A stretch of 64,000 nt of DNA, taken from the NCBI GenBank assembly GCA_964016885.1, contig OZ024745.1, forward strand, positions 96,038,001 through 96,102,000, given 5' to 3'. Numbering within the stretch: the stretch's first letter is position 1; each line of letters opens with the position of its first letter. The translations under genes and the position numbers were made by a program. Source of the DNA: Eledone cirrhosa (taxonomy: Eukaryota). Positions 11,621 to 60,104 of this stretch are shown piece after piece. The notes below the pieces were generated by a model. That model made no database searches and was not told the origin of the DNA. It was given only the letters and a program-made list of their open reading frames with translations.

Positions 11621-11685
11621 TTTATATATATATATATATATTAATTCAAAATATTAACAAAAATAGACATTCGTGTGATCAAGTA

Positions 11686-11752
11686 TATTTTATTATACAT
11701 ATTTCAGAGGTACTGAGCTAACTTCAACAGTACGTCCTCAGCAGATAAAATA
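11686..11752 (-). ncRNA. mirror copy of hammerhead A1 with a mutated core (CUGCUGA)
   Basis: Reverse complement of 12941-13007 with A6->C. Confidence 0.7.
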
Positions 11753-12940
11753 AGATGATGCATGACATACTCTGACATAGTAGATGGTTAAGATTCAGTC
11801 ATGGTAGTGAATAAGATATGACAAAACGCAATATTTATATACCTTAAGATTGAGACATGAACAAATTTACATATAATACAGAGGGTGCGTGTGAGAAAGC
11901 TTAAAAATACATAATAGCAATTTACATAACTGTTAGAGATTCAAATAATTTAAATTATTGAAGAAAGAAGAAAGAAAGAAGAAAGACAGAGAGAAACAGA
12001 TGAGGAGAAAATATAGTTACTAGAAGTATAGAAAGCAAAAGAGAATTGATCAAGGATAGAGAGACAAGGAGGAATAATTTTTATAGTATAAAGCATAGGG
12101 AGGAAGGTTTGTATTGTCGTGGATAAATAGCGTGTGATTAGATAATGCAAAAATTATATATATCTATACAAACACATGAATATACATTTAGGCATAGCTT
12201 TGTGAAAGAGTAAACTCGAATCTTTGAATTATTGAATTATCTAGAAGTATCCATCAATCTAAATATTAAATATATCTGATACATTTTGATTAATTCATTA
12301 TTCTAAACTAACATAAATGATTTGAAATTTAATGGTCAGCCAGATACGTTTGGATATATATAGTGTATATAATTAATTGTTAGTATATTTCTAATTAACT
12401 AAGGACTCGAAATTAAACCCAGATATATTTAATATTTAGATTGATGGATACTTCTAGATAATTCAATAATTCAAAGATTCGAGTTTACTCTTTCACAAAG
12501 CTATGCCTAAATGTATATTCATGTGTTTGTATAGATATATATAATTTTTGCATTATCTAATCACACCCTATTCATCCAAGACAATACAAACCTCCCTCCC
12601 TATGCTTTATATTATAAAAATTATTCCTCCTTGTCTCTCTATCCTTTATCAATTCTCTTTTGCTTTCTATACTTCTAGTAACTATATTTTCTCCTCATCT
12701 GTTTCTCTCTGCCTTCTTTCTTTCTTCTTTCTTCAATAATTTAAATTATTTGAATCTCTAACAGTTATGTAAATTGCTATTATGTATTTTTAAGCTTTCT
12801 CACACGCACCCTCTGTATTATATGTAAATTTTTTCATGTCTCAATCTTAAGGTATATAAATATTGCGTTTTGTCATATCTTATTCACTACCATGAAGAAT
12901 CTTAACCATCTACTATGTCAGGGTATGTCATGCATCATCT

Positions 12941-13007
12941 TATTTTATCTGATGAGGACGTACTGTTGAAGTTAGCTCAGTACCTCTGAAATATGTATAA
13001 TAAAATA
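12941..13007 (+). ncRNA. minimal type-I hammerhead ribozyme A1
   Basis: UAUUUUAU-CUGAUGA-GGACGUACUG..CAGUACCUCU-GAAA-UAUGUA-UA|AUAAAAUA: perfect 8-bp helix I, 10-bp helix II with one C.C mismatch, self-complementary helix III. Confidence 0.85.
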
Positions 13008-13320
13008 TACTTGATCACACGAATGTTTATTTTTGTTAATATTTTGAATTAATATTAATAACTCCGGAAAACCAATACTGTTGAGTTCTTCCAATCTATT
13101 GTAAAACTCATTCTTTGATTTATTCATTGAACCTTGTTTAACCTTTAAATATATATATATATATCTTTCTTTTTCTCCGTAACCCAACGGCTTATTTTAA
13201 AAATATCCAATACTAATAATATAATTAAAGTTACAACTCCACTATCCGGGAGCTTCCAACAGTAATGGTTGCATTCTTTAAGGGTATGTAAATATTTATT
13301 TATAAAACTGATCTATATTA

Positions 13321-56515: not shown

Positions 56516-58090
56516 TCAGGTGCGGACAACTTCTGAAGATCTCAGTCTTGAGCAAGTGTGAGGGGTTTTCAGATTTTGAAGAATTCTAAATTTTTCAGTT
56601 ATACACAAAGAACATTTCCTTGTGCCCCTTTGGCATTCGTTTGAGTGGTCTAAAATTGACCAATCAATGGAGTATGGAATGTGTCTGTCTTTAAACTCCC
56701 ACACTTTATATGCCAGCGCCGTTGAAGTTCTTTTCTCAGGGTGTTTGAATGAAGCGACGTGTGCATAATACCTGGTTTTAAATTTGACTTGTGTCATGCC
56801 AACATATCGCTCACTTCTGACTAGCTGGTTATTTATGATCGGTGTCAACTTGGTCTCATATACAATAGATTTGGTATTACATTTGCCCTGTAATGGGCAT
56901 TCTTCAGGTTTCCTGCAGCTGCATCCTGGGTTTCCTCTAGTTACATTTGTGTTGGTGATTTTGGTTTTCATTGATGGGCAGCAAGAGTAGCTGATTTTAA
57001 CTAAATTTCTATTAAATATCTTATTATATCTATGGTTTTGTGGGAAATGTTTGTCTAGGAGTTCGAGGAATTTTCTTACTACGTTAGTTTTAACTGTTAG
57101 AGATAAAGGAGTTGTAAACCATATAATTTTTCTTTTCCTGTTATTGTGCTAGGTAGGTAAATATTTGATTTGTTCGGCGAAGCCGCTGTTTTTGAGGGCC
57201 TTATAATATATTTATTAAAAATATCTATAGACGAAGATAAGGTAGAGATCCTACGACTAATGTTAGGAATAAGATTTTTAAAGACTATAGGGGGATGGAA
57301 AGACTCTTAAATTTTCATTGGGTTTATGATAGGGTTTAAAAGAGGCAGTAAGTAGGTCAAGATTGATATCGAGGAAGTTGGTATTAGTAAGATTCGTATC
57401 TATAGTAATTTTTAGGTTTAAGTTAGCAAAGGTATTAATTAAGTCTTTACGGAATTTATCAAGGTTATGGCCGTTGGTGGTATGAGAAACGGCCAAACCA
57501 TCGTCTCGGTATAAGCCAATATTATGGCAAGGAAATTTCTCTTTAAGGGTGTGGAGGAGGAATAATCCATCTAAATCGCACACATCGGCGCTATCATATG
57601 AGCCCATCGAGACATCAAAAGAGTTTTATGGGCTTGATTTTTTAACCCAAGTACCTTCTTTAGCGAAAAGTAGTGTTTTCCTAGCGTGTAAGATAACATC
57701 TTGCTCTAATTTAGAAATATTAATGAAAAGTCTAGCAAAATCTAGGGCTTTAATTAATAAGGATTCTGTGATAGAGGGATAAAATTCAACAATATCAAAT
57801 TGGGTAAATCTACACTTATTTTTTCCTTGTATATTATTAAACCAAGATATAACAGGAAGTATTTAACCATTGGGACAACTCAGTCATAGTTCTTATTTGA
57901 AGTATTATATTTCTTAGGATTTTTTTACTCGCAAGACCAATTTCAGATTTAGCAGGGTTGATTAGTCTACAACTAGGGCGATTAGTAAAGTCTGATTTAT
58001 GGGTAATATATGCATTACGTTTAGACTTTCAGTTCAGTTATCAATTTTTAAAGTACTAGCTAGGGCTTTAGCTTCATTATTAATGATATT
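56516..58090 (-). pseudogene. PLE ORF remnant: reverse transcriptase + C-terminal GIY-YIG
   Basis: 'RLINPAKSEIG..QFDIVEFYPSI..FDVSMGSYDSADVCDL..GLYRDDGL..FLDI'; 'CSCRKPEECPL.G.C..IVYE..YVGMT..FKTRY..H'; stops and frameshifts. Confidence 0.9.
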
Positions 58091-58276
58091 ATTTACTTTC
58101 CACCACAACTAATAATTTATACACTCTTTTCTCCCCACCTGTTCATTTTATTATATTATTTTAGTTATACTCCCCCATGTCCTTATACACCCACTATGGT
58201 TTAAGTATATATACGTTTTTATTTTTATTTTTTTGTCATTTTTATAATTGAGTGTGTTTCCTCACTTAGTTCCATT

Positions 58277-58386
58277 CAATCCCGCCGAGGTTAACTTTGC
58301 CTTTCATCCTTACGGGGTCGATAAAATAAAGTACCAGTAATGTACTGGGTAATTGCTGGCCTTGTGCCATAAGTAGAAACAATTAT
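58277..58386 (+). mobile_element. 5'-truncated SINE inserted in the right arm of PLE C
   Basis: Absent from the left arm (55960-55990); inserted at ATT. Confidence 0.85.
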
Positions 58387-60104
58387 ATTGTTTGTCTTAA
58401 GTATGTCTATAACTTTACATACATGTATATGCATGCGTATAAGTGTGTGAACACGTACGTGCGGGTACGTATAGATGTACACATACACATGTATATATAT
58501 ATATATACCTACTCGAGTGTCTGACTGTGTGTGGTTGTATGTACGTGTGTTATGTCCTCTTCCTTATATTGTATGTATGCTTATATGTGTGTACGTGTTT
58601 TTGTATATTTACGAGTACTTTTACGTGTGTATACTACATATGTGTATATATGTGTATGTGTCTGTCTCTCTCTCTCTCTATATATATATATATATGTGTA
58701 TAGGCTTGTGTGGGTATATGTGTGTGTATATATATATGTGTGTATGTGTATACATATGTATATGTATATATGTGTGTGTGTATGTTTATATATATATATA
58801 TACATATATGTGTACATATATATATTTATTTATCCCCCCCCCCCACCTTTCGTTGTCACCCCATCCCTTTTTGCTTTCATTTTATTTCCTCTCCTTGATT
58901 TTTAATTTTATTTGTTTATATCTGGTCCCCCAACTACTTCCCAATGTATCGGTGCGCATATGTGAATGAAAGATCACCCGCATATGTGTGTATTTGTATT
59001 TCCATGTAGACGCACATATATTTATGTGTGAATGTATATGTTTACGTTCTATTACGTATATGAGTGAGTTTATGTGTGTTTATGTATTTGGATATTTATT
59101 TATTAATTTTTTTTCCCTTCAATTTTTTGCCCATTATTTAATTTCAGCCTCACTTTCATTTACCCTATACTCTGTTTTCAAATCCATACTGCTACTTCAT
59201 AAATAAATATTGTTTCTGATGAATGAAGACAGACATAAATATCTGTCTTCAAGAAACCACTGGTAAATGAAATAATTATCTTATGTTGTTTATTACATAA
59301 CTAAATATATATATATATATACATATATACTTACTTATATACTTATATATGTATATGATTACAATGGATCGGATAACTGTTACATAATGATTTTGATACC
59401 TTTTCATACCATAATGAAATGTACACAATAGGTGTGATGTAATAAACTTAAGTTAATATATATATATAGGCCTTATAAAAACTTAGTAGCTATATAAGTA
59501 TAATACTTATTCTGTCTCTCTGATTTTAACCAGATTATATTGTTCTCAGCAAAATATTAAATGTATTGGTAGTGTGCAAGTGCTCTAAGGTCTTCGATCT
59601 TAGCTTCAGTTCTCTCATTGAGCGATCATAGAGCTACATGATTATTATATTATATATCAATCTCTTTTTAGTATTTAATCTCCTAGTTTAGTAAAGCAGT
59701 TTCTTAGTGTGTGAGCTATTTCTAGCGTTGCCACATACCACTTTCATCTTGTAGAATGTTGAAATTTTATTTCTTCTCTACAATGACTGGCCTCCCATTC
59801 TAATATTTTTCTGGAATTAAAAGACGTCTACTGATGATTGCTGGTTCTTTGCTTCACTATTTGTTGATGTTAACCAACGGTGAATGTTGATGATTTTTGC
59901 TGGCATAAAATGGTAACATACAGGCCATATTAAAACTTTGTGACTGTTTTTTAGCCTGATTATATTTTTCTCTGCAAAATATTAAATATGTAGTTTCCTA
60001 TGAGGTTTTAGATTTTTAGCTTCAATTCTCTCATTGAAAAATCATAGAGCCACATGATCATTATATTATATATCAATGTCTTTTATGATATATATATATC
60101 ATCA

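Follow-up and report, generated by a model that had tools for sequence, protein, structure and literature searches.

A tandem pair of bulged stem-loops lies at fixed distances from both insertion ends of Hydra-clade Penelope-like elements, five families of which occur in one region of the Eledone cirrhosa genome

Penelope-like elements (PLEs) of the Hydra clade, mobile elements of aquatic animals, carry two tandem bulged stem-loops, here HP1 and HP2, with most insertion ends 3-5 nt 5' of one or the other, and each hairpin probably positions the reverse transcriptase (RT) for internal, target-primed initiation. To our knowledge, the inverted pLTR with its one-sided tail has so far been an unexplained signature of PLEs. 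The present finding is of a covarying RNA element whose spacing from each of the two ends is constant throughout the clade, and the hairpin pair would explain the one-sided tail as well as the need for a tandem or 5'-pLTR structure in mobility. The first in vitro PLE system showed two internal start sites, and what sets them is not identified in the available passages of that report (PMC11167929).

Elements in the window and their clade

Five families (A, A2, B, C and D) of Hydra-clade PLEs occur within the window, the 64-kb stretch of Eledone cirrhosa DNA that was analysed. An earlier note, made from the letters of the window, had taken four of the insertions to be unrelated; protein comparison instead places all five families at 29-66% identity to one intact ORF, P0001, as distant relatives within one clade. 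P0001 is a 711-aa ORF from a sister family, C', and is 66% identical to window C.

The assignment to the Hydra clade of EN+ PLEs is made by protein motifs and targets. As in EN+ PLEs generally, a single ORF combines RT with a C-terminal GIY-YIG-type endonuclease, and a pLTR, an inverted 5'-truncated copy and a one-sided tail are present. Pfam gave no domain match for the Hydra ORF, so the endonuclease assignment rests on motifs. YRDD occurs in 119/119 homologues; RWK and DKT occur in P0001 itself, with RW[KR] and DK[TS] in the A, A2 and B loci. Among the aligned proteins the CxCX5C linker is found in 118/119 (X5-6 allowed), CxxC in 116/119 and CxH in 94/119, the last two around the conserved E and N, and these motifs occur in D loci too. 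Insertions are into (TA)n. The published Hydra clade, in the available part of Craig et al. (PMC8557442), shares the RWK, DKT, CxCX5C, CxxC and CxH motifs, a canonical hammerhead and (TA)n targets, and also the inverted 5'-truncated copy and one-sided tail; the published tails are 30-40 nt long, whereas those of the window families are about 55-105 nt. Placement in the Neptune or Nematis clade was considered and rejected, as the linker is CxCX5C and CX2-5CxxC is found anywhere in only 19/119 proteins. No relatives of the elements were found among viral contigs.

Family A forms a fold-back of two inverted arms (11638..13055; 1432 nt, 93%), with the outer left end adjoining (TA)n and the right arm stopping at 13055. 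On the plus strand are a predicted minimal hammerhead (12943..13005; core 12949, cleavage after 12999), HP1 (13061..13086), displaying C-G over a UU bulge, and the tail (13056..13154); elsewhere, 5'-junction copies continue into HP2 3 nt past the tail end. Family A2, also on the plus strand, comprises a predicted minimal hammerhead (13323..13383; core 13329, cleavage after 13377), HP1 (13433..13447), the loop of which is shorter in the window copy, and a tail (13429..13516) terminating in (TA)n, which is followed by HP2 at another locus (L132).

Family D includes a short inverted arm on the minus strand (15416..15469) with its outer end on (TA)n. On the plus strand follow a broken GIY-YIG remnant (15505..15974; 46% to P0001, residues 544-657), a predicted hammerhead (16155..16192; cleavage site 16188), HP1 (16231..16250) and a tail (16228..16289) continuing into (CT)n(TA)n; the arm stops at 16227. 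The window copy of D is mutated: the hammerhead GAAA box, altered here, is intact in 28/29 copies, and the family majority (27/34 copies) has a G-C pair over a single bulged U.

Family B is a fold-back (38081..40882) whose left arm is interrupted by a solo LTR (38107..38475), a later insertion with a 4-nt target duplication. The left arm resumes at 38081-38109 beyond the LTR and the right arm stops at 40882; plain repeat finding stops at 40860 because the LTR splits the left arm. The predicted hammerhead (40785..40831, plus strand; cleavage after 40827) has the U3-A8 core variant described in PMC4209133, and is followed by HP1 (40887..40908), with U-A over a UA bulge, and the tail (40883..40989); HP2 comes after the tail in L051. 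The published account of minimal hammerheads gives the same architecture, including U3-A8, and in its available part describes nothing downstream of the ribozyme.

Family C lies on the minus strand, with a tail (49653..49719), HP1 (49697..49717; U-A over a UA bulge) and a predicted hammerhead (49756..49815; core 49809, cleavage after 49760); the arm stops at 49720 in the window copy, and HP2 is seen in C' (L301-L310, at least 5 loci). An LTR retrotransposon with 234-nt direct repeats (50878..53975) lies inside the element. A broken RT and GIY-YIG ORF (56487..58090, minus strand) is 66% identical to P0001, and an inverted copy with a hammerhead (58741..59305, plus strand; core 59216) has its outer end on (TA)n.

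The five hairpins, the four plus-strand cleavage positions and the arm ends of A, B, C and D that the earlier note had given were all recovered in the sequence.

Sequence, covariation and folding of the hairpin

The motif is RCUC-Y...R-[UH]-GAGY, about 20-30 nt long, and occurs also in metagenome relatives whose proteins are 40-50% identical. Because the search pattern included the CUC/GAG core, the invariance of this core is uninformative on pairing. Evidence for pairing comes from the stem above the bulge. The pair over the bulge is U-A or C-G in 53/58 context clusters (U-A 25, C-G 28), and an upper stem of at least 2 bp is present in 34/58 clusters, compared with a mean of 10.4 and a maximum of 21 in swaps. 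Compensatory cells number 48 versus 13.3 in shuffled data, a level reached in 0/500 shuffles. On a 50-protein tree, with no rows from other PLE clades, the U-A/C-G pair changes 8 times, both sides always jointly; only 5 independent pairs fall on well-supported branches, and these agree 5/5 (p 0.0625).

The covariation of this Y-R pair places the conserved bulge, U-H, directly 5' of GAG, and the bulge register thus differs from the AU register of the earlier note. A descriptor built on the AU bulge had matched 14/26 foreign hammerhead clusters at a shuffle rate of 0.3%; it matched only 3/49 clusters of the own genome (many of them false hammerheads), missed the C-G class and was replaced after the covariation analysis.

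With the covariance model, the five HP1 hairpins are the top five matches in the 64 kb, beyond what chance would give, including HP1 of family D (13.8 bits, E 0.73), which was absent from the training set. Folding energies of the single hairpins are not unusual (z -1.0 to -2.5). In-context thermodynamic folding gives a lower-stem probability of 0.0 for HP1 of A and of 0.41 and 0.02 for two copies of its HP2, and favours the AU register in C (0.98) and B (0.56 vs 0.35). Upper stems of HP2 are short or absent (0-1 bp in 14/19). Wobbles in upper stems favour sense RNA, with G.U 14 and A.C 3 (p 0.013). At foreign loci 137/143 model matches are on the coding strand and none falls in the 113,492 nt of ORF sequence scanned; 23/59 foreign 3' flanks are without a model match. 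Rfam 15, searched within the window, left all five hairpins unmatched at E values up to 1 and gave the window hammerheads no score; the hammerhead motif itself is present in all five families.

Insertion ends relative to HP1

At 37/59 independent loci, the gap between the end of the inverted arm and the R of RCUC in HP1 is 4-5 nt, which confirms the earlier note's observation of arm ends just ahead of the hairpin; A2 is without an inverted partner in the window. Per family the counts are A 12/16, B 6/6, C 4/5 and D 11/16. A2 is looser: of its 16 inverted partners, only 4 have a gap of 4, whereas 5 have one of 8-9, and in 4 cases both arms bear a tail. When all ends near HP1 are considered, the gap is 4-5 in 72/107. 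Ends at foreign loci are few, 8 near HP1 and 5 near HP2.

HP1 arm ends sit on TA(T) continuing into (TA)n. TA microhomology is present at every mapped end and blurs arm-end positions by 2-6 nt. TA is found at -7..-3 from the hairpin in 44/54 cases, compared with 14-26/54 farther upstream. Each family offers 8-31 other TAT/ATA sites, yet one site by each hairpin dominates.

HP2 and the one-sided tail

HP2, a second copy of the motif, lies 44-106 nt downstream of HP1, directly before the start codon (12-48 nt ahead of the aligned ORF start). Tail-bearing ends stop about 3 nt before HP2 in 78/108 cases, and the tail is therefore the HP1-HP2 spacer. The offset is constant across families differing in tail sequence and spacing (57-106 nt).

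HP2 was first predicted from foreign loci and afterwards found in the Eledone cirrhosa genome. In family A, HP2 was present in 21/28 pattern matches and 14 loci read through into a Hydra ORF start; besides A2, B and C', noted above, HP2 of family E was traced as far as its 5' half. Three pattern searches did not find HP2 in family D, the HP1 of which has a 1-nt bulge. Of 54 foreign ORF starts with sufficient flanking sequence, 36 show two model matches, at a spacing of 44-83 nt. Both hairpins are present at 10/10 foreign tandem junctions. Among 22 foreign terminal 3' ends that carry HP1 and extend far enough past it, 21 are without HP2.

Proposed mechanism and alternatives

The bulged stem-loop is most likely a cis signal for RT, as the earlier note had suggested from the inverted end; the covarying stem-loop at a fixed position from that end bears this part out, and the second hairpin, which fixes the tail end, had been missed. 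Of the refuting conditions set out in that note, neither a lack of covariation nor a scatter of arm ends was observed. Judged from the sequences, each hairpin is likely an RT-binding site. The scheme set out here builds on what the sequences show directly: a covarying motif in two positions, insertion ends at fixed offsets from it, UA-rich patches just 5' of the hairpins, and terminal 3' ends that have lost HP2.

The template RNA would extend across the pLTR and on into the following 5' UTR and would therefore hold both HP1 and HP2. The GIY-YIG domain may nick a (TA)n repeat on both strands, whereupon each 3'-OH would anneal through 2-6 nt to the UA patch next to one of the hairpins. Starting from opposite DNA ends, the two cDNAs would be extended in the direction of the 5' end of the RNA, and their truncated ends would then be joined. 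The product would be an inverted repeat in which the arm started at HP2 exceeds the other by the length of the HP1-HP2 spacer, the tail. HP2 would never be copied into its own insertion end, and therefore only tandem or 5'-pLTR-bearing copies would move again. Two RT molecules as a dimer, or one acting twice, would both be compatible with the scheme. A more specific version, which we hold tentatively and would not yet back over its alternatives, is a duplicated RNA "launch pad", in which an RT-endonuclease dimer grips both hairpins of one transcript and starts two cDNAs simultaneously from the two ends of one (TA)n cut; this would be a two-site, internally initiated integration route, distinct from those of LINE and LTR elements and found in the sister group of telomerase, with clade-specific pairs perhaps present in other PLE clades.

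The hairpins might instead cause the RNA to be cleaved, or its 3' end to be formed, 3-5 nt upstream of themselves, RT starting at ordinary RNA 3' ends in a LINE-like manner. Genomic offsets and HP2 loss from terminal ends would be identical under this explanation, which also tolerates the intact HP1 of tail-bearing copies if cleavage is partial, and accords with RNA-seq read ends reported at Poseidon-Ac start sites. In the available text of the same report, however, Poseidon-Ac RT starts inward of the RNA 3' end and requires downstream RNA (PMC11167929), and pairing with a primer would account for the conserved UA patch at this position; cleavage-directed ends are unlikely. Less probable again is that the hairpins serve translation control beside the AUG, RNP packaging or a promoter, with ends set only by TA microhomology. 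The closeness of HP2 to the ORF start and the microhomology at every mapped end agree with such a role, yet among the many TAT/ATA sites one near each hairpin dominates, and the offset holds despite differing tails. Least probable, by a small margin and with odds decidedly against it, is a motif acting as DNA, recognised by the endonuclease in a cDNA or donor copy that is cut 3-5 nt away during resolution to leave a one-sided tail: Craig et al. attribute the tail to EN-mediated resolution (PMC8557442, available part) and the tail is needed for D. virilis EN recognition, as cited by Frangieh et al. (PMC11167929, available part), but the wobbles favour sense-RNA folding, the pairing covaries across a variable-length loop that a duplex DNA site does not need, and HP2 is missing from the inserted end that it governs.

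Positioning of RT by the hairpin pair, the preferred explanation, yields point-mutant predictions, and young intact copies are at hand. In annotation, the motif can also mark where elements truly begin and end, and a portable signal for internal RT initiation could serve genome-writing tools. Telomerase RT has its closest relatives among the RTs of PLEs, and a template-positioning RNA element therefore bears on the origin of telomerase RNA.

Relation to known systems

In hepadnaviral epsilon, telomerase template-boundary elements and the R2 3' UTR, an RT-bound structured RNA fixes the start or stop of copying; the bulge of epsilon templates protein priming. The comparison with epsilon made in the earlier note is a loose one, since the junctions show that priming takes place on target (TA)n DNA, next to the hairpin, and give no hint of protein priming off the bulge. 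At these junctions the element gives way to target (TA)n, and no bulge-templated oligomer is seen; here, unlike in epsilon, target DNA appears to serve as the primer, and the start of the template lies outside the hairpin.

Full-text searches found no description of the hairpin motif in the searchable text of openly accessible papers. The passages of PMC6431247 available held nothing relevant to the motif, and a term search of the accessible main text and supplement of Craig et al. returned neither "hairpin" nor "stem-loop". In the consensuses available from that paper (PMC8557442), by eye, Hydra-1_Ajap begins with both hairpins, Hydra-2_Ajap and Hydra-2_Amil have HP1 after the hammerhead, and the copepod and octopus consensuses have deviant versions of the motif.

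Poseidon-Ac, which belongs to a different clade from the Hydra elements of the window, is described in PMC11167929, cited here for its available passages. Two internal start sites bound the tail and both strands are cut and extended; RT starts at +111-118 yet needs RNA to +172. Poseidon-Ac resembles the Hydra elements in its AT-rich target and, as proposed for them, in two starts flanking the tail, with RNA 3' of the start required in Poseidon-Ac. Initiation is reported without target homology, whereas the Hydra ends show 2-6 nt. Those passages describe one "AC-rich stem loop" at a start rather than a repeated bulged hairpin 3' of each, and contain no comparative or covariation analysis of hairpins. 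Internal initiation at two sites, one on either side of the tail, is already published for a PLE; the paired hairpin motif and HP2 are new here. As a separate observation, a bulged hairpin can be drawn by eye just 3' of the downstream start site of Poseidon-Ac.

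Identity of the elements and hairpins in the window

Intact young copies of C', a sister family of C, carry a 711-aa ORF with RWK, DKT, CxCX5C, CxxC and CxH, which are the Hydra-clade defining features in the available text of Craig et al. 2021 (PMC8557442). The A, A2, B and D remnants are 29-57% identical to this ORF and display the same motifs wherever the region is covered. Likewise known for Penelope-like elements (PLEs) from that text (PMC8557442) are the inverted copy (arm), the tail and targeting of (TA)n; Hydra-clade elements and their architecture are already known.

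All five bulged hairpins proposed earlier for the window, with their hammerhead cores and cleavage positions, are present in its sequence. Two later insertions interrupt the elements: the left arm of B contains a solo LTR accompanied by a 4-nt duplication (38107-38475), and C contains an LTR retrotransposon (50878-53975). The solo LTR splits the left copy of B and causes an apparent arm stop at 40860; past it the copy resumes and matches to 40882, the end given in the earlier note. Rfam gives no match for any of the five hairpins, and folding them as single sequences yields nothing unusual (z -1.0 to -2.5), thus the window by itself is insufficient to settle the hairpin claim. Microsatellites are abundant in the window, and the source genome comprises 3.0 Gb. 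A short stub between (TA)n runs (36645-36740), displaying a long-looped hairpin of Hydra type, is a sixth model match, and its family occurs 6 times in the hairpin collection. LINE-type remnants whose open frames resemble RT lie at several places (17471-24378, 25319-28901, 13740-14400 and 41030-41900) and are unrelated to the hairpin finding.

Arm ends and hairpin structure

First-look candidates in the genome numbered 1,347-3,354 per family. From these, 40 per family went to scoring and 30 were extracted, leaving 29 non-self loci per family for the arm-end count. The motif is RCUC-Y...R-[UH]-GAGY. Consistent with the clustering proposed in the earlier note, the end of the inverted partner lies 4-5 nt upstream of the R in RCUC in 37/59 cases (A 12/16, B 6/6, C 4/5, D 11/16, A2 4/16), despite 8-31 TAT/ATA sites on offer per family in the region. 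Of the others, 6 do not end on a TA run, 4 have a tail on each arm and 12 show different offsets. TA is enriched just 5' of the hairpin, at -7 to -3 (44/54). Microhomology by itself setting the ends is a less likely rival explanation. An end-first screen blind to the hairpin, covering 1.2 Mb of blocks, the window and the 150 loci, gave 36 clusters, 18 with the motif at most 16 nt from the arm end. Among the 12 multi-member clusters the motif is found in 9, 5 of these seeded by the analysis's own queries, and is absent near the arm end in clusters 5, 10 and 11.

The base pair above the bulge, left free by the search pattern, is U-A in 25, C-G in 28 and G-C in 1 of 58 context clusters, with 4 others (at least 2 being mis-picked 5' halves). 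Beneath CUC/GAG the pair is G-C in 50, A-U in 5 and A-C in 3. An upper stem of at least 2 bp occurs in 34/58 clusters (mean 10.4, maximum 21, in 2,000 swap controls). The expected covariation is borne out by this U-A/C-G exchange and by a MAFFT alignment of 61 hairpins, in which 96.6% of cells are paired versus 84.3% when shuffled, and compensatory cells number 48 versus 13.3 (0/500). On a tree of 50 proteins with a call for the first hairpin (HP1) and at least 390 aligned residues, selected from 100 candidate rows, U-A and C-G occur in 25 each, and changes number 8 for either side and likewise 8 for the pair as a whole; all 5 well-supported independent pairs agree, 5 being too few to reach p 0.05.

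Covariation places a U-H bulge on the 3' strand, in place of the register in the earlier note, though folding in context favours the alternative register in B and C. Stem probability is low for the A hairpins, and from these two observations any hairpin fold probably needs protein. Family D is deviant, displaying a single bulged U in 27/34 copies. G.U outnumbers A.C (14 vs 3), which favours sense RNA as the folded strand; a less likely alternative is that the motif is a DNA-level endonuclease signal.

A second hairpin beyond the tail

The foreign set comprises 91 loci of relatives from metagenome and MAG contigs, mostly at 39-50% protein identity. In these the motif follows the site of hammerhead cleavage by ~35-65 nt and recurs as a second copy immediately 5' of the ORF, from which a second hairpin (HP2) was predicted just beyond the tail end in the Eledone cirrhosa genome. 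It was found in family A (21/28 pattern matches, control 0), the sequence continuing into the ORF start at 14 loci, and also in A2 (locus L132), B (L051) and C'. Only the 5' half was seen in family E, and pattern searches of the genome did not find HP2 in family D. Taking the rightmost possible end, 72/107 ends near HP1 have a gap of 4-5 nt and 78/108 near HP2 a gap of 3 nt, among ends at most 14 nt from a hairpin and with copies classed 'other' excluded. Foreign gaps are 3, 3, 3, 5, 5, 5, 10 and 10 for HP1 and 2, 2, 3, 4 and 8 for HP2.

The covariance model R2 was trained in part on foreign loci, where hairpin presence is circular and position is not. It gave 143 matches there, 137 on the coding strand and 0 inside 113,492 nt of ORF. 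Among 68 ORF starts, 14 are without enough flank; the other 54 have two matches (36), one (13) or none (5). The 87 ORF ends include 28 without enough flank and 23 without a match; terminal ends have HP1 only (21), stop with the contig (4 more) or have both hairpins (1), while tandem junctions have both in 10/10. By eye, the published Hydra-1_Ajap consensus, as far as available, has both hairpins at its start.

In C' (L301-L310) HP2 holds a ~60 nt loop insert, with bulge motif and end offset both kept. Family D tail ends (window 16289-16400, L091-L120) fall into two classes, into (TA)n or into (CT)n then (TA)n, possibly through initiation slippage or a compound target. Family E occurs in head-to-tail tandems repeating every ~3.5 kb (G000 C1 91.476-91.488 Mb, 377.71 Mb and 437.20 Mb). 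Its pattern matches total 646 across the genome, many of them located where a tail meets HP2; the short copies common in this family are fold-backs, with no hammerhead detected in the end-first screen. A tandem array (L199-L203, G000 C1 near 150.08-150.13 Mb) has a Hydra-type hairpin in each unit and at least 16 model matches, near which lies neither a hammerhead core nor a TA run.

Possible role

In target-primed retroelements cDNA synthesis proceeds toward the RNA 5' end, and the outer ends of an insertion therefore mark copying starts. Two kinds of end, each at a fixed distance of a few bases 5' of a motif copy, may most simply reflect two RT starts, one beside each hairpin, set by two putative RT binding sites. 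If both ends of a cut (TA)n repeat acted as primers, the product would be an inverted repeat in which one arm exceeds the other by the spacer length. RNA processing at hairpin-adjacent sites is a less likely way for the ends to be set. Two-hairpin priming would be in line with the available account of Poseidon-Ac RT, with initiation at two internal sites that bound the tail, extension of both strands, and a requirement for ~55 nt of RNA on the 3' side of the downstream start site (PMC11167929).

The motif is a real, clade-wide cis element of a known kind of retroelement, and apparently undescribed before. No description of it or of a tail-defining hairpin pair was found in full-text literature searches or in the available text and supplements of PMC8557442 and PMC11167929. 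Of the cis signal put forward in the earlier note, the conserved element stands, as apparently does its unreported status; the role, judged from sequence, is likely.

Other PLE clades

A PLE remnant of another clade (window 2729-3609) has a CX4CxxC linker, GIY-YIG (PF01541) and a hammerhead core at 3418. Arm ends in its family, cluster 5, are fixed; the RCUC/GAGY hairpin is absent from the cluster and the model has no match at 2729-3609. In the non-Hydra cluster 10 (e.g. L212, L237 and L045) a different 4-5 bp hairpin, with pair-preserving variation and a hammerhead nearby, starts exactly at the arm end, and the tail continues into an intron-like donor. This hairpin offers a lead that other PLE clades use their own signal.
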